Made by a program: the position numbers and the translations under genes. A stretch of 63,270 nucleotides of DNA, filler included. It is 8 parts of 8 records of this genome, joined end to end, with 100 filler letters (N's around TTAATTAATTAA, not from the genome) between each part and the next. Parts side by side here need not be neighbours in the genome. Positions count along the whole stretch, not along the records: positions 5,620 to 10,973 come from SRR31156797_40405; 7 more parts are not named here. The stretch is one strand, 5' to 3'. A model generated the notes under the pieces. That model saw only the letters and a list, made by a program, of their open reading frames with translations, ran no database searches and had not been told where the DNA came from. Positions 5,855 to 16,891 of the stretch are shown here, in pieces. The number at the start of each line of letters is the position of its first letter. Positions within the stretch are counted from its first letter, which is position 1.

Positions 5855-5989
5855 TCAGGGTACGATTCTTACCATGCCGGATTTCCATTTTTCAGTAGCC
5901 ACACAAATAGTTTTGATCACAATGAATGCATATCCACCAGCGATAACCATTCCGGTAAGCAACATGATGATTGATAGATTCTTCTTCAT
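5855..5989 (-). CDS. 44-aa small membrane/secreted protein (not in ORF track)
   Basis: MKKNLSIIMLLTGMVIAGGYAFIVIKTICVATEKWKSGMVRIVP*; lies downstream of the promoter-like motif at 6074-6110. Confidence 0.5.
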   Translation of the reverse strand: MKKNLSIIMLLTGMVIAGGYAFIVIKTICVATEKWKSGMVRIVP

Positions 5990-6073
5990 TTGGTTTTGGT
6001 TTTTGATTTTGCAAATCAACATTAAATTATTATCTGTTGTTTTAGGTCACATAGCTTTGCCTTTATAGCTAGC

Positions 6074-6110
6074 TGTTCTTCAAAAAGGGATTTTGTCAGG
6101 GATTTTAACA
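6074..6110 (-). promoter_or_regulatory. Putative ECF promoter, copy A
   Basis: Minus strand TGTTAAAAT-ccc-TGACAAAA-N12-GAACA; same motif at 10652-10689. Confidence 0.6.
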
Positions 6111-6253
6111 CAAAAAAAAATCGGTATTTTTTTATCTCTCTGATATAGAAAACGAAACAAAAATCAAAACCTTAACAATTGTTAATAAACGTTAATGTAT
6201 TGTTGTGCTTTTCATATTAGAGGAACAATATTACAGTGGTTGATAGGATTAAT

Positions 6254-6261
6254 TAATTTTG
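6254..6261 (+). promoter_or_regulatory. Bacteroidota housekeeping -7 element
   Basis: TAATTTTG matches TAnnTTTG, 35 nt upstream of the sigma ATG. Confidence 0.4.
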
Positions 6262-6295
6262 GTGTTGCAAAATTGATACATCCTAAACAACAATA

Positions 6296-6844
6296 ATGAA
6301 AGCTGAAAATAGAAGACTCATTGAACTGCTGATTGCCGGCGATAATAATGCCGTCCGAAATTTCATGAACAAGCACAGGGACATAATAAAATCGTATGTA
6401 CTTTCCAATAGCGGAATCCTGGGTGATGCCGAGGATGTGCTACAAGAAGGTTTTTTAAGATTCATGCTTAGAATTAAAACACTGGAAATCCACACCGTAA
6501 AAAACCTGGATGGTTATTTTATTACGATTTGTAAAAATGTTTGGCTAAAATATCTGCTCTACAAGAAAAACCAGAAAAAATATGTTGACACGGTAAAAGA
6601 GACGAAAATTGTAGAAAATGAAAGCGCCCAGGACCAGGAGGCCAAATTTGAGGAGAAAAAGGAACTTGTTATGCGGATGATGAGTAAACTTCCCGAGGAG
6701 TGTCAGCAGATACTCCTTATGCGAATGTATGGATACACCTATAAGGCGATTTTAACTATGGTGAAGCATGAAACGGTAGGAACGGTAAGAAACCAAAGCT
6801 ATGAATGTATTAAAGAATTAAGAAAACTGATAAAACGCAAATAG
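6296..6844 (+). CDS. ECF-type sigma-70 factor
   Basis: DAEDVLQEG, YFITICKNVW region 2; LPEECQQILLM..YGYTYKAI...TVRNQSYECIKELRK region 4. Confidence 0.92.
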   Translation: MKAENRRLIELLIAGDNNAVRNFMNKHRDIIKSYVLSNSGILGDAEDVLQEGFLRFMLRIKTLEIHTVKNLDGYFITICKNVWLKYLLYKKNQKKYVDTVKETKIVENESAQDQEAKFEEKKELVMRMMSKLPEECQQILLMRMYGYTYKAILTMVKHETVGTVRNQSYECIKELRKLIKRK

Positions 6845-6847
6845 AAA

Positions 6848-7627
6848 ATGCAAAAAAATACAACAGATCAGATCATTGCTTACCTCAACGGTGAGTTGAC
6901 CAGCAAAGAATCAGCACAGCTGAAAGAAAAAATTGCTGCGGACCAATCTGTGGCAGAAGAATTTCAAATGTTAAAAAGCCTGCACCAGTCGGCTCATGAC
7001 GAAGATTTCCTGGACCAACTTTTTGCCCTAAGGATGGAAAATAAACAAAAAAGTCGACATGGTTCCAATCCGGAAATTAGACCATATGCCAGTCGCGATA
7101 ATGTAAGGATTATCAGGTATCTTATTTATATTGCTGCGGCTGTGACCGTTTTAATGCTTGTGTATTTCATAACAGGCCAGGATAATGAAAACCATACACC
7201 AGAATCCCTGTTTGTAAAATACTACATCGGCTACGACCAGATTGTGGAGATGCGTTCGGGAGAAGATACCACCGGGAGGTTTGCCAACGGCATGAAGCTC
7301 TATAGCAGCGGCAACTGGGAGGGAGCCATTCATTCACTGAACCAGGCCCGCCAGAATTTTGAACTTACGGCGGCATTTTACATCGGGATGTGTTACCTGG
7401 AGCTTCAGGAGTATGCCAAAGCTGAAGCACAATTCCACCGGGTAATTGATCATTCAGGCGATTTCAGGCAGGAGGCGCAATGGTACCTTGCTTTAACCTT
7501 GTTGGCAGATAAAAAAGTTGAACAATCCGAAAAGCTTTTACAGGCCATTGTGAATCAGAAAAATCATTATTTTCGGGAGAAAGCTCAAAACCTAATGAAT
7601 GACCTGAAAAGTACCGAACCCGAATAG
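6848..7627 (+). CDS. Putative membrane anti-sigma factor with extracytoplasmic TPR domain
   Basis: 3 nt after the sigma gene; N-terminal IIAYLNGEL anti-sigma-like helix, TM (YLIYIAAAVTVLMLVYFIT), TPRs (FYIGMCYLE, AQWYLALTLL). Confidence 0.8.
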   Translation: MQKNTTDQIIAYLNGELTSKESAQLKEKIAADQSVAEEFQMLKSLHQSAHDEDFLDQLFALRMENKQKSRHGSNPEIRPYASRDNVRIIRYLIYIAAAVTVLMLVYFITGQDNENHTPESLFVKYYIGYDQIVEMRSGEDTTGRFANGMKLYSSGNWEGAIHSLNQARQNFELTAAFYIGMCYLELQEYAKAEAQFHRVIDHSGDFRQEAQWYLALTLLADKKVEQSEKLLQAIVNQKNHYFREKAQNLMNDLKSTEPE

Positions 7628-7678
7628 ATCAATAAAGTATTGAAATTCTCCCGTTGCCTGCTACCCTCAATATCATAT

Positions 7679-10603
7679 TCAGTTCTTTTTCATCTGATTT
7701 CGTCGAATAATGAGAAACATCAGGATAATCAGCATTGCAAAAACCAGAACAACTTTAAAATAAGCGTTGGGGTTTGGTGGAACCCCGATCGCTGATTGGT
7801 CTCCAACCACGGTAAGCCCGGCCCAGTATTTCGGATGGGTTTTGCCGGGCATAACAGTTTTCAGGAATTCAAGTTTGGCTGCTCTGAGTGATTGGTTTTT
7901 AGGCATCCCTTCCCTGAGGCCGGTATAAAAGGATGTTATGATTGTTCTTGCCGCTGCATCGTCAATGGGAAACAGGGAAATACCCACACTTTTGCATCCG
8001 GCATACCTGAACGCCCAGCCCAGGCTGATCACGCCTTCGCCATCCAGTATCAATCCATTACCTGAGCTGCATGCACTCAACATCACTAAATCAGCCTGCA
8101 TATCGCTGCAGCAAATCTCAGAGGTAAGAAAGGGCTCGTAGATGTTTTCTGCAGTATCGCCGGCAAGCATCAGGCCTGTATTGAACATCCCGGTGGTGTC
8201 TGTTCGGGTATGTGTAGCAAAATGAATTACCGAGGCTTTTTCCAGGTAAGGCTCAAGGCGGGTTTTTGTTGCCTGGCTTCCAGAAAGCAATTTCCCGCTG
8301 AACAAATCAGCCAGATATGCTGCTTCCCCGCCGGCCTCTACGATGGAACTCAAGTTATCCCGTACATGGGCAGCAGCACCAGTAAAATCAGGTGCTACTG
8401 CCACGAAATATTGGTTGCCCGTATCATCCGGCTGTATTTTCTCCCTGTCCGGATAGAGGGAGTGATGATAGCTGAACGTAAAATCATACAGCAGGTAGGG
8501 CAATTCCCGGTATGGCGTTCTAGGATCGGGCTTACTGCTCAGCAAAGCCTCAAAGGGCAGCAGGTTTAATTCACGGTCAGGCACCAGGATCAATTCCTTA
8601 ATTCCGCGCAATCCGAAAGTATCGCCCAACAATGTTTCCGTTAGTGTAGTTGCATGACTGAGATATGCTGTTTTAGCACTGGGATTGCTCTCCGTTGGAT
8701 TACAAAACGCCACCACCTGTCCCGCCATCTCCCTTACCTGATTTGCATTTTCGTTTCTCACCCAGTAAACCGAATCCGGGGTAAGCTGAACAATATGTAG
8801 CACGGTATCTTCCAGAAAGTAGCTGCAGAGCATTTGTCCTTCCATTATCCCGGACTTGATCTTCTCGTACGTCAGCATCTTAAATTGCCTGTCGATGGTT
8901 TCGGGATATTGCTGAAGAATAATATTTCTAACGGAGTCTTTTTGCAGGATCAACTTAAATAGTTGATCTTTCAGTCGCGCTGTTTCTGTGGTATTACCCA
9001 CATCCTCTTTTTGCTTGATTTCTGTGTGAAGGCTGTTGATCCGGTTAACCAGGGACGTGTTAAGCCGGGACAGCGTAACGGGTAGTTTTGCAGTCTGGTC
9101 CCGGGACGACATCATACTTTTCACCAGGAGGTATTTACCGGTTTCAGAAAACTGAAGTGCCTTTTCCAGGTAATAGGTATCATGGCGATCCTGGTAAAGT
9201 GCGTGGGCGGCATCCATTCCTGCCAGCATATATTTCCGGATTTCCTTTTTTAATACCGCCAGGCGATCCTGCATAAAAGTTTTGTTGTGAAGCCTGGCTT
9301 CCACACAATGGCCGTAGTAGTCGCAATTGGCCACAATCAGGCGGTTGACGGACTGCAATGAATCCCGGCTCAAAGGCTGTTGCTTTATAGCAATGAGCGA
9401 TTCCAGCTTGCGACTCATGATTTCGGGCAACCGCTTATCGGCATTAAAAACATCTGAAGGGTTGGTAGCATAATCCAATGTGTCAACCTCTTTGGTATTG
9501 CAATACAGTGCCCGCTGAAAATAGTACAGCGATGAATCGTATTTCTGGTATTTGTGGTAGGTTCGGCCAATGACCCAGTAATTGGTTAGTACCACTTTAT
9601 GATAATCACCATACTTAGCTTTATTCAATGTAAAGCCATGCTTATATTTTTGTAATGCCTTCTGATAATCTCTTTGACTATTCTCATAATAATTACCAAA
9701 ATTATTTAAGTGGTAAATATATGCCATGGTGTCCAATTCACTCAGGTTTAAATTACTAAAACTTCGCTCATCAAGTGTATATTCACCAATCTGATCATAG
9801 CAATAGTTTAAAACATTATTAATGTAAGACTCGAAAGCATTTCGGTCACTGGTCATATATTGCATTGCCTTATTAAAATGAATCACAACCTGTTGCCAAT
9901 CTCTCAAGGCATAATAAACCCGTCCAATATTATAGTTAAAATTAAACAGCCACCATCGATTTTTATTGGTCGAATTTTTCACACAATTAAGTCCTTCATT
10001 ACCATACAATATTGCCTTTTCAAAATCTCCTCTCTCCTGGTAGAATTGAATGAGATTTTGATACATATAGAGTATTGATTCGGAAGGATATTCAGTATCG
10101 TTTCTCTCAAGATCTAATGTTTTTAAAAAGTAATATTCAGCACTATCATAAAATTGCTTCGCTTCGTAATATTGCCCGATTGCGAGAAATAATCTTGCTT
10201 CATGCTCACTTTCATAGCTATGGTTTAATCTATTTGCCAGATTCAGATAATATATTGTGCTATCGATTTCTCTAAGACTTCGCCATGCATTCCCAATATT
10301 TATGGATATATCTATTAAATTAGAGGTGTCTGAGAATGAAAGCCCATAGAATATCCTCTGGTAAATTTGGAGAGAGCTATCATAGTTGCCTAAATAGTGA
10401 TAACAATTTCCCCTTCGTTTCAATAATTCGAAATCAAAACTAGAAGTTTCTTCAGTATTTAATAAGTCCAATGCACTCTGGTAATATTTCCGATCATAAT
10501 AATGATTAAAACTATCAATAACAGAGATATTCTGAGAATGTGCTATTGGGGCAATCAACCCAATAAGCACTTTAATTATCATTATGTGCCTGTATTTCAA
10601 CAT
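7679..10603 (-). CDS. Exported/membrane-anchored TPR-CHAT (caspase-like) protease
   Basis: Signal peptide MLKYRHIMIIKVLIGLIAPIAHSQ from 10603 (TAnnTTTG at 10615-10622); TPRs; LILVPD..L..LPFEAL; catalytic IHFATH and VMLSACSSG; HPKYWAG; C-terminal TM. Confidence 0.92.
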   Translation of the reverse strand: MLKYRHIMIIKVLIGLIAPIAHSQNISVIDSFNHYYDRKYYQSALDLLNTEETSSFDFELLKRRGNCYHYLGNYDSSLQIYQRIFYGLSFSDTSNLIDISINIGNAWRSLREIDSTIYYLNLANRLNHSYESEHEARLFLAIGQYYEAKQFYDSAEYYFLKTLDLERNDTEYPSESILYMYQNLIQFYQERGDFEKAILYGNEGLNCVKNSTNKNRWWLFNFNYNIGRVYYALRDWQQVVIHFNKAMQYMTSDRNAFESYINNVLNYCYDQIGEYTLDERSFSNLNLSELDTMAYIYHLNNFGNYYENSQRDYQKALQKYKHGFTLNKAKYGDYHKVVLTNYWVIGRTYHKYQKYDSSLYYFQRALYCNTKEVDTLDYATNPSDVFNADKRLPEIMSRKLESLIAIKQQPLSRDSLQSVNRLIVANCDYYGHCVEARLHNKTFMQDRLAVLKKEIRKYMLAGMDAAHALYQDRHDTYYLEKALQFSETGKYLLVKSMMSSRDQTAKLPVTLSRLNTSLVNRINSLHTEIKQKEDVGNTTETARLKDQLFKLILQKDSVRNIILQQYPETIDRQFKMLTYEKIKSGIMEGQMLCSYFLEDTVLHIVQLTPDSVYWVRNENANQVREMAGQVVAFCNPTESNPSAKTAYLSHATTLTETLLGDTFGLRGIKELILVPDRELNLLPFEALLSSKPDPRTPYRELPYLLYDFTFSYHHSLYPDREKIQPDDTGNQYFVAVAPDFTGAAAHVRDNLSSIVEAGGEAAYLADLFSGKLLSGSQATKTRLEPYLEKASVIHFATHTRTDTTGMFNTGLMLAGDTAENIYEPFLTSEICCSDMQADLVMLSACSSGNGLILDGEGVISLGWAFRYAGCKSVGISLFPIDDAAARTIITSFYTGLREGMPKNQSLRAAKLEFLKTVMPGKTHPKYWAGLTVVGDQSAIGVPPNPNAYFKVVLVFAMLIILMFLIIRRNQMKKN

Positions 10604-10651
10604 GTTTAATGCGTCAAAAATAATCTTTCTTCCTGGTTTTCCAAAAAAAAA

Positions 10652-10689
10652 TGTTAAAATTTCATGACAAAACCAACCCTTCCGGAACA
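10652..10689 (+). promoter_or_regulatory. Putative ECF promoter, copy B
   Basis: TGTTAAAAT-ttca-TGACAAAA-N12-GAACA, ending 55 nt upstream of the peptide ATG. Confidence 0.6.
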
Positions 10690-10744
10690 ATAGTGCAAAG
10701 ACGTCTTTGAAAACACATTTATTCATTTAAAAAAAAGAAAAATT

Positions 10745-10885
10745 ATGAAAGAGGAATTTTCAACCAACGAACCGGAAGCATTGAACGAAGCACTCATGAA
10801 ACAATTATTTGGTGGAGATGGAGGTGATCCGCCATCTGACCCTCCACCAGATCCACCACCACCACCCGATGACAACAATGGCTGA
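10745..10885 (+). CDS. 46-aa double-glycine-leader precursor peptide (not in ORF track)
   Basis: MKEEFSTNEPEALNEALMKQLFGG|DGGDPPSDPPPDPPPPPDDNNG*; hydrophobic residues at -12, -7, -4 plus GG; followed directly by a C39 gene. Confidence 0.85.
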   Translation: MKEEFSTNEPEALNEALMKQLFGGDGGDPPSDPPPDPPPPPDDNNG

Positions 10886-10916
10886 TTTTATGTATTAGGA
10901 TAATCAAACTGTAAGA

Positions 10917-10973
10917 ATGGAAATATCACACCTCCAACACGACAAAAAAGACTGCGGCCCTGCCTGTCTGCAA
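10917..10973 (+). CDS. N-terminus of a C39 peptidase / peptidase-containing ABC transporter (truncated by contig end)
   Basis: MEISHLQHDKKDCGPACLQ contains the Q-x4-DCGPACL catalytic motif. Confidence 0.85.
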
Positions 10974-11073: not shown

Positions 11074-13438
11074 GAACAAACCCTATAAAAAATCCGCCCG
11101 TATTGTCGGTGATGTCATCGGTAAGTATCACCCCCATGGTGATACCGCCGTGTACGATACCATCGTCCGCATGGCCCAGGATTTTTCCATGCGTTACACC
11201 CTTGTGGACGGCCAGGGCAACTTCGGTTCCGTGGACGGCGATTCTCCCGCCGCCATGAGGTATACCGAGGTCCGGATGAAGAAGATTGCCCATCAGATGC
11301 TGGCCGATCTCGAAAAAGAGACCGTGGACTGGATTCCCAACTACGATGAAACCCTGAGTGAACCGTCGGTGCTTCCGACCAAGTTTCCCGCCCTTCTGGT
11401 GAACGGTTCCTCCGGTATTGCCGTGGGTATGACCACCAACATTCCACCCCACAACGTCGGGGAGGTCGTCCAGGGACTGATCGCCCTTCTGGACAACCCC
11501 AACATCACCATCCCGGAACTGATGGAGCACATTCCCGGGCCTGATTTCCCCACCCATGGCCTGATATACGGCACAAAGGGAATCTATGACGCCTACACCA
11601 CCGGCCGGGGCATCATCTCCGTCCGGGCAAAGGTGGATGTGGAGGTGAATTCCAAGACAAAGGCCGAGACCATCATTGTGAGCGAGCTTCCCTACCAGGT
11701 GAACAAGGCGAAGCTTGTGGAGAAGATCGCCGAGCTCATGCGGGCAAAGGTGATCGAGGGTGCTTCCTTTGTCAGGGACGAGTCGGACCGCCAGGGTATG
11801 CGGATCGCCATCGGCCTCAAGCGGGACCAGATCGCCGAGGTGGTGATCAACCAGCTTTATAAGCATACCAACATGCACACAAGCTTCGGCATCATCTTTC
11901 TTGCCGTTGTCAATAACCGTCCCGAGCTGTTTACGCTCAAGGAACTCCTGGAGCATTTCATCAATCACAGGCGCTCGGTGATCATCCGGCGGACCCTGTT
12001 TGATCAGAAAAAGGCCCAGGAAAGGGCCCATATCCTGGAGGGGCTGATCAAGGCCCTGGATAACCTGGACGCTGTCGTGTCCCTGATCCGGGCCTCCCGG
12101 TCCCCTGAAGAGGCAAAGACCGGACTTGTTGAGAACTTCGAGCTCACCCCCGTACAGGCCCAGGCCATCCTTGAGATGCGCCTCCAGCGGCTTACCGGGC
12201 TTGAGCGGGACAAGATCAACGAGGAGTACGCCCAGCTGTTGAAGGATCTTGCCTGGTACAAGGAGATCCTTGAGAGCGACGAAGTGGTCAAGGGAATCAT
12301 CAAGGAGGAGCTGAACGAGCTCGTCGATGAGTACCAGGATTCCCGCCGGACGGAGATCGTCGAGGCCACGGGAGAGATCGGCATCGAAGACCTGATCGCG
12401 GAAGAGGATATGGTGGTCACCGTGACCCGAAGCGGCTATATCAAGCGAAACCCGGTTACCCTGTATGCCAGCCAGCACAGGGGAGGGAAGGGCAAGACCG
12501 CCATGGGTACCAAGGATGAGGATTTTGTGGAGCATCTGTTCGTTGCCTCCACCCATCACACCTTTCTTTTTATCACCAATTTCGGCAAGGTATACCAGTC
12601 CAAGGTGTACCAGCTTCCCATGGCCGGCAGGACCAGCCTTGGCAAGGCCATTGTCAACCTGCTCAACTTTGACGAGGGGGAAAAGCTCGCCACGGTGCTC
12701 ACGGTTCCCGAATTTGTGGACGGCAAATACGTGGTCATGGCCACCAAGCTCGGCCGGGTCAAGAAGACAGACCTCATGGCCTACTCACGTCCCCGGTCCG
12801 GCGGCCTCATCGGTATCAAGCTGGCCGAGGAGGACGAGCTGATCGCGGCCGGCATCACCGACGGAGATACGGATATATTCCTTGGCAGCGAAGGCGGCAA
12901 GGTGATCCGGTTCCACGAGAGTGATGTCCGGACAACGGCCAGGGGCTCCATGGGGGTCAGGGGCATGCGCATCGATGCCGGTTCCGCAGTGGTCGGCATG
13001 GAGGTCCAGAACCACGGTCACACCCTTTTGACCGTCACCGAAAACGGATACGGAAAACGAACCAACATCGAGGAGTACCGGACCCAGACCAGGGGAGGGA
13101 AGGGGGTTTTCTCCATCCGCACCTCCGAGAGGAACGGTAAGATGGTTTCCCTTCTGCTTGTGGGGGACGAGGATGAACTCATGCTGGTCACGGACAAGGG
13201 CAAGCTTATCCGGACCGGTTGCCGGGACATTTCGGTCATTAGCCGTAACACCCAGGGCGTGAGGCTCATCAACCTGGGCAACGGTGAACAACTCATCGCC
13301 GCGGCAAGGCTGCCCGAGGACGAGGATGACGACGAGACGCTGGACGCGTCCGATGCGTCTGACACGTCCGAAGAGGCCCAAGCCGTTGACCATGGGGAGG
13401 GCCATGAACCAGAAGAAAACGAAGGAGCACAAGGGTAA
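11074..13438 (+). CDS. gyrA: DNA gyrase subunit A (5' truncated)
   Basis: [26 protein letters not shown] catalytic Tyr, GyrA-box QHRGGKG, beta-pinwheel repeats, acidic tail. Confidence 0.97.
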
Positions 13439-14132
13439 AGGGCACCGGAAACGGCTGAGACAGCGGTTTATGGAGGGCGGTCTTGGGGGGTTCCATGATT
13501 ACGAAGTGATCGAACTCCTCCTGACCCTGTACACCCCGAGACAGGATTGCAAAGATAGGGCAAAAGCGCTGCTGAAGCGATTCAAGACCCTCCAGGGGGT
13601 ATTTGAAGCAAGTGTGGAGGAGCTGACCCGGGTGAAAGGGGTCGGCCCCACCAATGTCCTTGGCATCCGGCTCATCAAGGAGGCCAGCGACCGGTATCTT
13701 GAAAAGCGGATCCTTGCAAAGAGCGTTCTGAATAACTCCGGGGATCTTCGTTCCTTTCTCGACCAGTTCATCGGCCACAGGCACCGGGAGGTGTTTGTCT
13801 GTATCTTCCTGGATGCAAAGAACCGGGTGCTGGCAAGCGAAATCCTGTTCCAGGGGAGCCTCACCTCCTCAGCCGTCTATCCCCGGGAGGTCGTCGCCAG
13901 GGCCCTGGACCACAGGGCGGCGGCCCTGATCTTTGCCCACAACCATCCTTCGGGCGATACCTTGCCTTCGGGGGAGGACATCGCCATCACCAAGCGGCTG
14001 TTCTTTGCCCTGGCCCATGTGGGGATCACCGTGCATGAGCACGTCATCACCGGGGCTGAGAGCTTCTACAGCTTTGCGGACAAGGGCATCATTGCCGAAT
14101 TCAAAAGGGAGTTTGACATTCAACATGGATAA
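13404..14132 (+). CDS. radC: RadC / JAB-domain protein
   Basis: [24 protein letters not shown]...PS.ED; RBS GGGGAGG before 13404. Confidence 0.92.
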
Positions 14133-14388
14133 CGATACAAGCGAACGGCCGGACTGTTTCGGAGAGCTTGAAAAGGTGTTTCCCATGGGCGATCGGGGAT
14201 TGCGGGAGACGCCGGACGACTGCATGTACCACTGCCCCTGCAAGACCGCCTGCCTTCGGGCTGCCATGGACGGGGCCAGGGGGGTAAAGGTGCAGGAGGA
14301 ACTCGTTGAGCGGGGAGAGGAGGCAGGCATGCTGACCTTTTTCCAGCGGTGGTCCAGGAAGAAACAGCTGGCAAGAAAACGATCCTGA
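14125..14388 (+). CDS. Small Cys-rich hypothetical protein
   Basis: PDCFGELEKVFPMG..GLRETP..C...C..KT.CLR; overlaps the radC stop. Confidence 0.7.
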   Translation: MDNDTSERPDCFGELEKVFPMGDRGLRETPDDCMYHCPCKTACLRAAMDGARGVKVQEELVERGEEAGMLTFFQRWSRKKQLARKRS

Positions 14389-14508
14389 CCCGGAAGGGTA
14401 CACTCTTGTGTTTACTTTGTTTCGGGTTGGAAGTAGTATAAAACATTACCGGGGGCCCGCAACCCCGGGCATAACCATAATATCTGGCGGGATGATCCGG
14501 AGAAGCAT

Positions 14509-15690
14509 ATGAAAACGGTAAGAGATATTGAGCTGAACGGCAAGGCGATTCTGGTGCGGGTGGATTACAACCTGCCCATGGACGATGACCTGAACATTGC
14601 CGATGACAACAGGATCAGGGCAACCCTTCCCCTGATCCAGTACCTTATGGACAAGGGCGGGAAGATCATCCTTGCCTCCCACATGGGAAGGCCCAAGGGG
14701 AAAAGAGTGCCGGGCCTGAGCCTTGCGCCGGCCGCAAAACGGCTTTCCGAGCTGTTGGCCCGACCCGTGGGATTCGTGGACGATTGCCTGGGTCCCGTGG
14801 TGGAAGAACGGGTGGCATCCCTTACCCCGGGGGAAATCCTTTTGCTTGAAAACCTCCGGTTCTATAATGAAGAGACCGCCAATGACAGGGACTTTGCAAA
14901 AAAGCTTGCTTCCCTGTGTGATGTTTATGTCAACAACGCCTTTTCCGTCAGCCACAGGGAGCAGGCGTCGGTGGTGGCCGTCACGGAGTTCACTGCCCAG
15001 GCCTGTGCCGGTTTTTTACTGGAAAAAGAGGTGAAATGCTTTCGGGACTCGGTTGAATCCCCATCGCGGCCGTTGGTGGCCATTGTCGGCGGGGCCAAGG
15101 TCTCAAGCAAGCTCGGCGCCCTTAAAAACATGCTCAAGTATGTTGACCGTCTCATCATCGGCGGCGCCATGGCCAACACCTTTCTCAAGGCCCGGGGGAT
15201 CGATACCGGCGCCTCCATGATCGAAGCGGATCTGGTTGGAACCGCGGCCGGCATTATTGATGAAGCAAAGGAGCGGGGGGTAGACCTTCTTCTTCCCGTG
15301 GACCTGGTGGTGGCCGACCGGTTCGATGCCGCTGCCGAAACACGGGAGGTGAGCGTTGACGCCATTCCCGGCACATGGATGGGACTTGATATCGGGCCTG
15401 AAACCGGTGCCCGGTTTGCCAAAGCCCTGAAAGACGCCGGTACCATCGTCTGGAACGGTCCCATGGGGGTGTTCGAGATGGAACGGTTCTGTGGGGGCAC
15501 AAAGACGGTGGCCGATGCCGTGGCCGCTTCCAGCGCCTTTTCCGTGGTGGGCGGCGGGGATACCGGCCTTGCGGTCAAGGTGTGCCGGGTGGCCGATAAA
15601 ATGAGCTATATTTCAACCGGCGGCGGCGCCTTTCTCCACCTGATGGAGGGACGTGAGCTTCCAGGGGTAGCCGTGCTTAAAGGGAGGTAA
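14509..15690 (+). CDS. pgk: Phosphoglycerate kinase
   Basis: RVDYNLP, SHMGRP, LLENLRF, GGAKVSSK, WNGPMG, STGGGA. Confidence 0.97.
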   Translation: MKTVRDIELNGKAILVRVDYNLPMDDDLNIADDNRIRATLPLIQYLMDKGGKIILASHMGRPKGKRVPGLSLAPAAKRLSELLARPVGFVDDCLGPVVEERVASLTPGEILLLENLRFYNEETANDRDFAKKLASLCDVYVNNAFSVSHREQASVVAVTEFTAQACAGFLLEKEVKCFRDSVESPSRPLVAIVGGAKVSSKLGALKNMLKYVDRLIIGGAMANTFLKARGIDTGASMIEADLVGTAAGIIDEAKERGVDLLLPVDLVVADRFDAAAETREVSVDAIPGTWMGLDIGPETGARFAKALKDAGTIVWNGPMGVFEMERFCGGTKTVADAVAASSAFSVVGGGDTGLAVKVCRVADKMSYISTGGGAFLHLMEGRELPGVAVLKGR

Positions 15691-15695
15691 CAGGA

Positions 15696-16760
15696 GTGGG
15701 GATGTTCTGCAGCACAAGAAACCGGCTGAGTCGAAAGGATAAGCTGAGGCGCTCCTATTACGAGCTGCTCCGGGATGAGATGGATCAGTTTGTCCTTGGT
15801 TACGCCCTGATCGACTCTTATAACAATTTTTTGCGGCAGAAGACCCCCTATCCCTTCGTGGAGACCCGGGAACTCAAACCCCGGGCCCGGATCCCCTCCA
15901 TCGAGTTTGATGCCCAGAATTCGTTCCTGGTGCTCTTCTGTGAGGAGTTTGTGGATGAGAGCCACAAAAAGTACATCCGCTACTTTGACGCCAACAAGAC
16001 CACAAAGACCAACCTGGTGAAGCACAAGCACTTTCCCGATGTGGAGGAGTATCACAGGAATCTCAAATACATCGATACCGACGGGTTCTTTGATTTCATG
16101 AAAACCCTGCTCCCGGTGGACTACGCCCTGTTGATCCAGCGGGATGTCCGCGCCGGCACCCAGGACAGGTACGCCCTGACCCATTTCCATGTGCGTATTG
16201 ACTGGCCCATTGCCGACGCGGCCGAGGAGCTTGGACGGGATCTTCGCTATATCTCCAAGGATCTCTACGAGAAGGGGGATAAATATGCCGAAAATTTCCA
16301 GAAGAAGTTTTTCGAGTACTACGGCATGCCGGTGATGGCAGGAGGCCGGAGAACGGCCGCCATTGTGGCTGCCCAGTACTTCAGGAAGCTTGACGGAATC
16401 ACTACGGTATACGTGGGAAGCAGCGAGTCAAGGGCCCTGTTGCGGATCGATGAAAACAGCATCTCCAAGTCGATCCTGGTGAAATTTACCCGGGACGAGG
16501 TGAGGGAGATCTCAAAATCCGCAAACATTACCCAGACCAGCTTTACCAAGAATTATGTGGTTGCCAGGGAGGGAAAGTACCTGGTCTGCATATTCAATGT
16601 CATTTATGCCTATACCCCCCATGCCCTGCCGTCGGAGGGAGGGCGGCTCAGGGAGCTGAAATTCGATACCAACTGGCTCACCGTGTCCGAGGAGCAGATC
16701 CTGCCCAAGCCCACGGTGTGGAAGTATCCCCCCATCCCATTTAAGATTATCTACGCTTGA
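15696..16760 (+). CDS. Hypothetical protein
   Basis: 354-aa ORF with RBS, directly downstream of pgk; no motif recognised. Confidence 0.75.
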   Translation: MGMFCSTRNRLSRKDKLRRSYYELLRDEMDQFVLGYALIDSYNNFLRQKTPYPFVETRELKPRARIPSIEFDAQNSFLVLFCEEFVDESHKKYIRYFDANKTTKTNLVKHKHFPDVEEYHRNLKYIDTDGFFDFMKTLLPVDYALLIQRDVRAGTQDRYALTHFHVRIDWPIADAAEELGRDLRYISKDLYEKGDKYAENFQKKFFEYYGMPVMAGGRRTAAIVAAQYFRKLDGITTVYVGSSESRALLRIDENSISKSILVKFTRDEVREISKSANITQTSFTKNYVVAREGKYLVCIFNVIYAYTPHALPSEGGRLRELKFDTNWLTVSEEQILPKPTVWKYPPIPFKIIYA

Positions 16761-16767
16761 TACCTGC

Positions 16768-16891
16768 CTGACCCCGGCTGATGTAGCCTTTGGATGTTTG
16801 CGGCTTACTTGTGATCAGGGTCCGGCGGTGCTATAGGCCTTGATGCCGGAAGCGCAGGTCAAATTTGCTTCGCTCGTATCGAAGGGGTCAG
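16768..16891. repeat. Short element with inverted ends (MITE/REP-like)
   Basis: CTGACCCC (16768-16775) and GGGGTCAG (16884-16891); the contig breaks at the right end. Confidence 0.35.

Follow-up and report, generated by a model that had tools for sequence, protein, structure and literature searches.

In Escherichia coli, the DegS/RseA/sigma-E pathway relies on a membrane-anchored periplasmic protease that is activated by peptides and is the first to cleave a single-pass anti-sigma factor, after which intramembrane proteolysis frees a sigma factor of the extracytoplasmic function (ECF) type. The type III-E CRISPR system called craspase comprises Cas7-11, the tetratricopeptide repeat (TPR)-CHAT protein Csx29, Csx30, and an ECF-like sigma factor. 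Gram-positive bacteria have pheromone circuits that use peptides with a double-glycine (GG) leader, among them ComC/ComAB/ComDE, BlpC, and the PlnA-type induction factors encoded next to bacteriocin genes. The RRNPP receptors are cytoplasmic TPR proteins, fused to DNA-binding or phosphatase domains, that bind re-imported peptides. The closest precedent for the locus described here is DdvA of Myxococcus xanthus, a single-pass anti-sigma factor to the ECF sigma factor DdvS whose periplasmic part is a TPR-CHAT protein (PMC11506125; PDB 8rot, 8rw5). According to that report, loss of the periplasmic part exposes DdvA to RseP, and the authors propose, without proof, that some signal leads CHAT to act in trans and cut the flexible linker next to the membrane (PMC11506125). 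Here, we describe a locus from an uncultured Bacteroidales bacterium that encodes an ECF sigma factor, a predicted single-pass anti-sigma factor with a TPR domain, a separate TPR-CHAT protein, a GG-leader peptide, and the start of a peptidase-C39 ABC exporter (PCAT). It lies on one contig (positions 5620–10,973, 5354 bp, G+C 0.40) of a 63,270-nucleotide (nt) stretch of DNA, hereafter the window, and coordinates are those of the window unless preceded by the name of a related locus.

We read the locus as a split sigma switch of the DdvA type, coupled to an exported peptide of its own making, and we give this overall reading a probability of roughly 0.4. A first-pass annotation of the window, made from the sequence letters, had suggested that the exported peptide activates the CHAT protease, which then cleaves the anti-sigma factor, and that the freed sigma factor transcribes the peptide and exporter genes. 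As a whole, that interpretation is partly supported by the comparisons reported below.

Components of the locus

The five components listed by the first-pass annotation (ECF sigma factor, TPR anti-sigma factor, TPR-CHAT protein, GG-leader peptide, and C39 start) are indeed present on the one contig, as judged by profile matches, structure modeling, and likeness to a related metagenomic locus designated L001 (Table 1). The sigma and anti-sigma genes form a pair, the TPR-CHAT gene is convergent with this pair on the opposite strand, and the peptide gene is divergent from the TPR-CHAT gene.

Table 1. Features of the sigma/anti-sigma/CHAT/peptide locus, with positions in the window and the basis of each assignment.
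Feature	Position	Strand	Basis
ECF (group 4) sigma factor, 182 amino acids (aa)	6296–6844	+	Matches to Sigma70_r2, Sigma70_r4_2, and TIGR02937
Predicted single-pass anti-sigma factor, 259 aa	6848–7627	+	TPR matches, one hydrophobic segment, structure model
TPR-CHAT (caspase-fold) protein, tail-anchored, predicted periplasmic, 974 aa from the conserved ATG	7679–10603	−	Pfam, homologue alignment, model
Putative ECF-type promoter of the peptide/exporter operon	10665–10691	+	9-mer TGACAAAAC, 12-nt spacer, hexamer AACAAT
GG-leader peptide precursor, 46 aa	10745–10885	+	Open reading frame, leader profile, position beside CHAT
Peptidase-C39 ABC exporter (PCAT), first 19 codons, ended by the contig end	10917–10973	+	Likeness to L001 PCAT
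Candidate sigma-gene promoter (weak)	6265–6291	+	6/9 of the −35 9-mer, 12-nt spacer, 5/6 of the −10 hexamer

The TPR-CHAT protein is the largest component. Its CHAT domain matches PF12770 over profile positions 5–289 of 289 (E 5.8e-47) and is preceded by about 560 residues of TPR-type helices. In the structure model (predicted local distance difference test, pLDDT, 82.1; predicted template modeling score, pTM, 0.73), TPR-type helical repeats extend to about residue 566 and are followed by an alpha/beta domain. The top Foldseek matches of this model are Csx29 of craspase (E 1e-13), separase, and the DdvA structures 8rw5 and 8rot (E 1.3e-11), with TM-scores of only 0.2–0.5, and a sequence search of the PDB found DdvA as the sole CHAT chain (E 0.0099). 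Residues H795, H799, and C846 (numbered in the 975-residue translation) are invariant across 28 sequences that diverge to ~18–26% identity. The protein thus combines a TPR superhelix on a caspase-fold domain with the catalytic His and Cys residues, and it is predicted to be a protease; the invariance of the dyad and of its surrounding motifs argues for catalysis.

In seven close homologues, the N terminus of the CHAT protein is hydrophobic and resembles a signal peptide, ending in a small-x-small motif before Gln, and the C terminus consists of a hydrophobic helix followed by a basic Arg/Lys tail. These features place the body of the protein in the periplasm. The intact dyad, signal peptide, and C-terminal anchor noted by the first-pass annotation therefore stand, but the start of the gene is the ATG at 10603 that is conserved among homologues, and not 10726. 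The longer open reading frame (ORF) from 10726 runs antisense across the peptide promoter, which explains a similar "extension" in the database homologue P0001.

The sigma factor has sigma-2 and sigma-4 regions only and falls within the size of ~180–200 aa that is typical of group 4. It matches Sigma70_r2 (E 4.5e-08) and TIGR02937 sigma70-ECF (59.2 bits, cut-off 42.9), and its match to Sigma70_r4_2 (21.6 bits) is slightly below the cut-off of 25.7. The anti-sigma gene begins 4 nt past the sigma stop codon. Its product shows the arrangement of a single-pass anti-sigma factor, with an N-terminal helix bundle and one transmembrane helix, and is thus predicted to inhibit the sigma factor. An NCBIfam anti-sigma model matches the protein at E 0.017, under its cut-off, and a sequence comparison with the PDB returned only non-significant TPR matches (CHIP, IpgC, E >= 0.02). 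The sigma and anti-sigma proteins share 31% and 34% identity, respectively, with their L001 counterparts.

The anti-sigma protein has a single hydrophobic segment (residues 86–111) and TPR matches at residues 147–240, and its first 85 residues contain no Cys. In the structure model (pLDDT 82.8), an N-terminal bundle of helices 5–13, 19–31, and 33–49 leads into a long transmembrane helix (83–110), a short juxtamembrane helix, a non-helical loop (126–140), and a C-terminal TPR domain (141–255), which is predicted to face the periplasm. Across the protein family, a juxtamembrane motif is conserved and Arg136 is nearly invariant; in the model, this residue lies in the exposed, lower-confidence loop between the transmembrane helix and the TPR domain. 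This modeled loop around Arg136 is a reasonable candidate for a cut site. Separase and metacaspases cut after Arg.

The peptide sequence is exactly as written in the first-pass annotation. The leader is 24 residues long and ends in GG, and the 22 residues of the core comprise 10 Pro, 6 Asp, 3 Gly, 2 Asn, and a single Ser, with no Cys, no basic residue, and no hydrophobic stretch. No curated family in NCBIfam or Pfam matched it. Judged by its composition, the acidic Pro-rich core is unlike a membrane-active bacteriocin and has no feature of known antimicrobial peptides. A short leader ending in GG, then a core, beside a C39 exporter is the arrangement expected of a GG-leader peptide. The exporter begins 32 nt 3′ of the peptide gene, and 14 of 18 residues of the fragment, including the Cys-bearing motif, are identical to the N terminus of the full-length PCAT of L001. 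The latter has C39 (1.6e-32), ABC_membrane (1.6e-19), and ABC_tran (9.4e-31) domains, of which the 19 codons in the window represent only the beginning.

Conservation of the gene set and of the peptide family

Close homologues of the CHAT protein are all metagenomic and number six, at 40–66% identity, among 103 matches. At 41% CHAT identity, L001 encodes HlyD, PCAT, a GG peptide, CHAT, anti-sigma, and sigma in the same order and orientation as in the window. Its peptide, of 45 codons, also has the GG motif and a similar acidic Pro-rich core. L002 comes from the same organism as L001. The closest genome-derived CHAT relative, at 60% identity, is L003, from a Lentimicrobiaceae (Bacteroidales) genome bin, on a contig that ends on the sigma side.

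For a broader survey, we searched 401 Bacteroidales genomes with the CHAT profile, retrieved as much as 20 kb surrounding each of the 60 top-ranked places, and located on these stretches the homologues of proteins from the window and from L001. CHAT profile matches at E <= 1e-40 occur in 167 of these genomes. Together with the window and L001, the 60 places provide 62 full-length CHAT genes; both a sigma and an anti-sigma gene lie within 8 kb in 44 of them, and many of the others are at contig ends. The gene upstream could be evaluated for 50 CHAT genes with at least 700 nt of upstream sequence. The window, with only 247 nt upstream of the long ORF, was therefore left out of this set. A divergent GG-leader peptide gene of the acidic, Pro-rich family lies directly upstream of 14 of the 50, all encoding CHAT proteins of 926–1073 aa; these are 14 of the 21 evaluable CHAT genes under 1080 aa.

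Another group of loci, which we call the sister class (L043, L046, L050, L051, L055, L057, L060, L070, L076–L078, and others), also carries the trio of sigma, anti-sigma, and CHAT genes, with CHAT proteins of ~1100 aa. There, the upstream gene encodes a protein of ~410 aa with a carboxypeptidase-regulatory-like domain and a type IX secretion system (T9SS) sorting tail.

The peptide family was also recovered by a blind filter for small ORFs in which GG precedes a core with a Pro content of 25% or more. Applied to 23 whole loci, the filter retained seven ORFs in six loci, and all seven are divergent from a CHAT gene and within ~350 nt upstream of it. The family comprises at least 13 strong and four weaker members, and every one is divergent from a CHAT gene. 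The 13 aligned peptides share a conserved leader, and a leader profile built from these 13 sequences, which match it by construction, added the weaker members in L058, L062, L087, and L088, whose cores are less Pro-rich, plus a second tandem copy in L099. Tandem duplications of the peptide gene are seen at L045:11445–11799 and L099:8482–8946; the leaders are kept and the cores have diverged, and the second L099 copy is partly N-masked.

An orthologous PCAT (at least 40% identity to that of L001) is present within the fetched stretch of seven of the 14 peptide loci. Five genomes among the seven other loci were checked, and four of the five have a PCAT ortholog (51–52% identity) on the same contig, 8–15 kb from the CHAT gene; in the fifth, G247, the ortholog is absent. 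The first-pass annotation had set conservation of the peptide and PCAT genes beside homologous CHAT-ECF loci as a test of its proposal beforehand, and the test was passed in L001, with its full layout, and by these peptide and PCAT counts.

These comparisons also bear on whether the neighborhood arose by chance, with a spurious peptide ORF next to unrelated genes on a short contig. The ORF has only 46 codons and no curated family match, and it lies on a 5.4-kb contig of a mixed bin. However, at least 13 strong homologous peptide ORFs occupy the same place in other loci, with conserved leader and promoter, and the full layout recurs in L001, whose CHAT protein is 41% identical. A chance neighborhood is already contradicted by these observations and is extremely improbable.

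Two extended relatives show further genes. In L100 (L100:1262–12473) and L101 (L101:1247–15918), the peptide gene is followed by genes for a second anti-sigma-like protein with a transmembrane segment and TPRs and for a HisKA-only protein of 240–280 aa. Further on, L100 carries four Cys-rich GG peptides and a VKOR/C39-like protein, and L101 carries lanthipeptide genes (LanC and split LanB genes) together with one Cys-rich GG peptide; PCAT and HlyD come next in both. The regulatory module in these relatives is thus embedded in clusters for bacteriocins or ribosomally synthesized and post-translationally modified peptides (RiPPs).

A promoter element before the peptide gene and its relatives

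The peptide genes are preceded by a conserved element, in which a GTnAC-type −35 region followed by T- or A-runs is separated by a fixed spacer from an A/T-rich hexamer. In the window, this element lies 54 nt 5′ of the peptide start, and the same 9-mer occurs at the same spacing before the peptide gene of L001. There, the 9-mer is present in three copies inside a ~105-nt repeated element, a number that was reached in 0 of 200 shuffles. A scan of the window contig alone for repeats and sigma-70 promoters found no repeated promoter element; the motif emerged only by comparison with relatives.

Related copies of the promoter are found upstream of sigma genes, where L001 and L041 have 23 and 22 of 34 positions identical to their own peptide promoters. 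Non-cognate comparisons gave a mean of 17.7 of 34 (SD 1.45, maximum 22). With a matrix from 12 peptide promoters, 13 of 45 related sigma genes have a site by the start codon at the 99.99th-percentile threshold. Nine of these 13 sites, plus several subthreshold copies, end 0–9 nt 5′ of the start codon, a geometry that suggests leaderless transcripts of the sigma genes. In the window, the candidate sigma-gene promoter ends 4 nt before the sigma ATG and is one of three loose matches with that spacing on both strands of the contig. Another candidate, at 6155–6179, has the right hexamer and a spacer that is 2 nt too short, and was set aside.

The shared promoter motif lends indirect support to the claim of the first-pass annotation that the freed sigma factor transcribes the peptide and exporter genes. 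Comparison among loci supports well that the sigma factor of the locus reads the promoter of the peptide and exporter genes. Autoregulation of the sigma gene in the window is, from its sequence, only plausible.

Further features of these promoter regions were seen in relatives. The ~105-nt element of L001 (L001:6880–7404, L001:3560–3780) has one copy before the peptide gene and two in the interval that separates the CHAT and anti-sigma genes at their 3′ ends. The two extra copies adjoin a 40-codon copy of the CHAT 5′ end (L001:7088–7210) and are followed by no peptide ORF; they may be a rearrangement remnant or additional antisense promoters. In L001, short A/C-rich repeats (CAAATCACAAA-like units) make up an unusually long leader of ~130 nt between the promoter and the peptide start codon (L001:3565–3700, minus strand), and the window has nothing alike. 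In the sister class, a promoter of the form GGGTTACCTTTT...GGAATTAAT lies just before the sigma start codon and recurs as divergent pairs upstream of the CHAT gene.

Metatranscriptome data from four runs of one study carry pieces of the contig at 90% or greater likeness. One RNA-library contig of 802 nt starts at 10710, 19 nt past the −10 hexamer, covers the peptide gene and the C39 start, and extends beyond the contig end, and a second starts at 10919; such contigs reveal neither where transcripts begin nor how abundant they are, and RNA libraries can contain DNA. Depths were 27.8 and 69 for the contigs with peptide and PCAT sequence and 2–5 elsewhere, values that are not usable to rank expression, and parts of the contig are uncovered. 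The RNA-library contigs are therefore a weak hint of peptide/exporter expression. In run X8, the RNA-library contig has one A fewer in the A-run at 10729, just 5′ of the peptide start codon, perhaps through a homopolymer error or because the strain differs.

Proposed mechanism and alternatives

We propose that the anti-sigma factor would hold the ECF sigma factor at the inner membrane and expose its TPR domain and juxtamembrane loop to the periplasm. The separate TPR-CHAT protease, presumably exported via its signal peptide and tethered by its C-terminal helix, would act as a site-1 protease on the anti-sigma ectodomain, probably in the loop around Arg136, and intramembrane proteolysis would then release the sigma factor. 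The sigma factor would read the private promoter of the peptide-PCAT(-HlyD) operon and probably that of its own gene. PCAT would cut off the GG leader and export the acidic Pro-rich 22-mer. Finally, binding of the 22-mer by the periplasmic TPR domain of the CHAT protein or of the anti-sigma factor would increase protease activity or access, closing a positive loop. What suggests the peptide as the ligand is its fixed place beside CHAT, its sigma-type promoter, its non-bacteriocin chemistry, and the presence of two predicted periplasmic TPR domains.

Several points weigh against this mechanism. The trio of sigma, anti-sigma, and CHAT genes does not need the peptide, because 36 of the 50 evaluable CHAT genes are without it: 22 (1067–1137 aa) have the ~410-aa T9SS-tail secreted protein upstream, in the same orientation, in place of the peptide, and 14 have neither. 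In L003, the CHAT gene is broken into five ORFs by stops and frame changes (L003:2070–5551), and the expected place of the peptide gene is taken by a 154-aa ORF that looks like a transposase fragment. L003 is a counter-example or a decayed copy, and its CHAT gene is either a pseudogene or poorly assembled. Among 11 loci, no more than 2 or 3 show a clear cognate match between sigma and peptide promoters, the other nine pairs being at background except for a −35 match in L087, and the candidate sigma-gene promoter of the window scores 3.1 on the family matrix, where the threshold is 9.5. A PCAT with HlyD normally expels its cargo across both membranes, so re-entry or periplasmic release of the 22-mer must be assumed, and the quorum-sensing reading needs this ~2-kDa exported peptide at a periplasmic sensor. 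The exporter of the extended relatives has genes for Cys-rich GG peptides and lanthipeptides as neighbors and may chiefly serve those products, in which case the Pro-rich peptide is perhaps an output only. Contact of CHAT with the anti-sigma factor, its cleavage, and binding of the peptide to a TPR domain are steps that we infer. A complex prediction with CHAT residues 94–945 and anti-sigma residues 112–259, in which the supplied alignments were unused (score 0.00, mark 0.34), is neutral on binding. The proteolysis of DdvA is itself a proposal (PMC11506125).

Some of these points would fit an arrangement in which the peptide is output only and the anti-sigma/TPR-CHAT pair senses something else at the envelope, for example phage, foreign peptides, secretion load, or damage to the cell wall. 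In that case, the sigma factor would switch on export of the peptide and of the bacteriocin or RiPP products of relatives, and the peptide would be an effector (metal- or surface-binding, or matrix) or an accessory product. The promoter evidence covers the path from sigma to peptide and not that from peptide to sigma, and the trio works without such a peptide in the 22 and 14 genes cited above. The module in relatives borders Cys-rich GG peptides, the VKOR/C39-like protein, and LanB/LanC, then PCAT and HlyD, which fits a regulator of a secreted-product cluster; however, the Pro-rich peptide gene is not found among the Cys-rich peptides but stays directly beside CHAT even where PCAT is 8–15 kb away. 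The core also lacks features of known antimicrobial peptides, and its tandem copies, with fast-changing cores behind a conserved leader, would fit a specificity-bearing ligand equally well. The signal proposed for DdvA is external and phage-related (PMC11506125). On balance, we consider a peptide that is only an output somewhat unlikely, yet a serious competitor to a peptide that signals.

The role of CHAT can be questioned separately. It might be a scaffold or co-inhibitor, as in the protection of RseA by RseB, or the peptide or T9SS cargo might be its substrate, to be matured or degraded, with other proteases releasing the sigma factor. The sister class offers a possible protease-substrate pair, since its CHAT gene follows the gene for the T9SS-tail protein in the same orientation at less than 600 nt, and cleavage of the anti-sigma factor by CHAT is conjectural. 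The active site of DdvA is described as incomplete and resting (PMC11506125). Against these alternatives, the His/Cys dyad and surrounding motifs are retained in all 28 sequences compared, and the linkage to sigma and anti-sigma genes in 44 of 62 cases and the fused architecture of DdvA indicate the anti-sigma factor as the partner. A CHAT protein that is not the protease of the anti-sigma factor therefore seems distinctly unlikely to us.

The reading that we prefer remains a DdvA-type switch divided between two proteins, with the peptide as its locus-encoded partner. By analogy with the sister class, the CHAT/anti-sigma pair may more generally monitor a locus-encoded secreted product that crosses the periplasm, in the manner of DegS with outer-membrane proteins. 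In its most specific form, the proposal describes a Bacteroidales pheromone circuit: a PCAT-exported GG peptide would be read in the periplasm by TPR-CHAT, which would cut the TPR anti-sigma factor and free the ECF sigma factor, and the sigma factor would drive the peptide/exporter operon and, in relatives, bacteriocin and lanthipeptide clusters. We offer this form only tentatively and regard it as doubtful.

Contig context

The window consists of eight contigs with N-linkers between them, and its G+C spans 0.297–0.571. One of these contigs (11074–16891, G+C 0.571) carries gyrA-like and pgk-like ORFs. The window looks like a mixed or loosely binned assembly, and neighboring contigs are therefore uninformative for the locus; no further piece of the module was found on the other seven contigs of the window. 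On the contig of the locus, an ORF of 55 codons with one hydrophobic segment (5855–6022, minus strand), divergent from the sigma gene, was dropped from the module. It has no counterpart in 63 compared loci and therefore is probably not a module gene.

Significance and comparison with known systems

GG-leader peptide signaling between cells is a Gram-positive paradigm, and to our knowledge no comparable GG-leader peptide circuit has been established in Bacteroidota. If true, the proposal would describe a pheromone circuit of a kind undescribed in diderm bacteria and would supply a natural activating ligand for a DdvA-type protease switch. The module may also control adjoining RiPP or bacteriocin clusters in relatives. 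Because its parts are separate, small, and expressible (an anti-sigma ectodomain of 150 residues, a soluble ectodomain of CHAT, and a synthesizable 22-residue candidate ligand), they make the DdvA-type mechanism directly testable. With a CHAT relative in 167 of 401 Bacteroidales genomes, the trio may be a major unstudied envelope-signaling route of this order.

The module is real and conserved, we found no description of it in print, and its mechanism is unproven. Full-text literature yielded only DdvA and craspase papers and no paper on a split sigma/anti-sigma/CHAT/peptide module in Bacteroidota, although supplements (e.g., table S7 of PMC11506125, or those on ECF classification) may list such neighborhoods. 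The statement in the first-pass annotation that no system of this form had been described therefore holds for the Bacteroidota module, but it needs qualifying in view of a close precedent, DdvA/DdvS (PMC11506125), and of the textbook logic of DegS/RseA. What is new here is the anti-sigma/TPR-CHAT split plus the joined peptide/exporter operon, whereas the DdvA-type switch and the GG-peptide/PCAT unit are already known.

DdvA/DdvS shares with the window module an ECF sigma factor, a single-pass anti-sigma factor, a periplasmic TPR-CHAT domain with a His/Cys dyad, and, where cleavage is proposed to occur, a flexible linker next to the membrane (PMC11506125). However, where DdvA is a fusion, the anti-sigma factor and TPR-CHAT of the window are encoded by two genes on opposite strands, a split also seen in 44 of 62 related loci, and the CHAT protein has its own signal peptide and tail anchor. 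The main text describes a CHCC zinc site for DdvA, regulation of CBASS/CRISPR, and DdvA-like proteins only in Myxococcota and one Comamonas (PMC11506125). In contrast, the N-terminal domain of the window anti-sigma factor is without Cys, the genes proposed to be regulated are the peptide/exporter operon, and the module belongs to Bacteroidota. With split polypeptides and no zinc site, the window system falls outside the DdvA family as that family is defined.

Craspase resembles the window proposal in that activation of a TPR-CHAT protein leads to cleavage of a sigma-binding protein. Unlike the window module, it is cytoplasmic, is activated by RNA through Cas7-11, and has no membrane proteins, peptide, or exporter. 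The likeness to RRNPP systems is limited to the TPR as a proposed peptide receptor: both TPR proteins of the window are predicted to be periplasmic and have no DNA-binding or phosphatase domain, so the window proteins are not RRNPP receptors.

The proposed logic of the window module is that of DegS/RseA/sigma-E. DegS is a PDZ serine protease activated by the C termini of misassembled outer-membrane proteins, whereas the window protein joins TPRs to a caspase fold, and its candidate ligand is a dedicated peptide that is made on ribosomes, exported, and expressed from the putative promoter of the sigma factor itself. With the Gram-positive circuits, the locus has in common a GG peptide encoded with the C39 exporter that would cleave and export it, autoinduction (proposed here), and, in L100 and L101, the frequent location of such circuits beside bacteriocin or RiPP genes. 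The Gram-positive GG peptides act through a histidine kinase and a response regulator across a single membrane; in the window module, the reader would instead be the anti-sigma/CHAT pair in the periplasm of a diderm bacterium.

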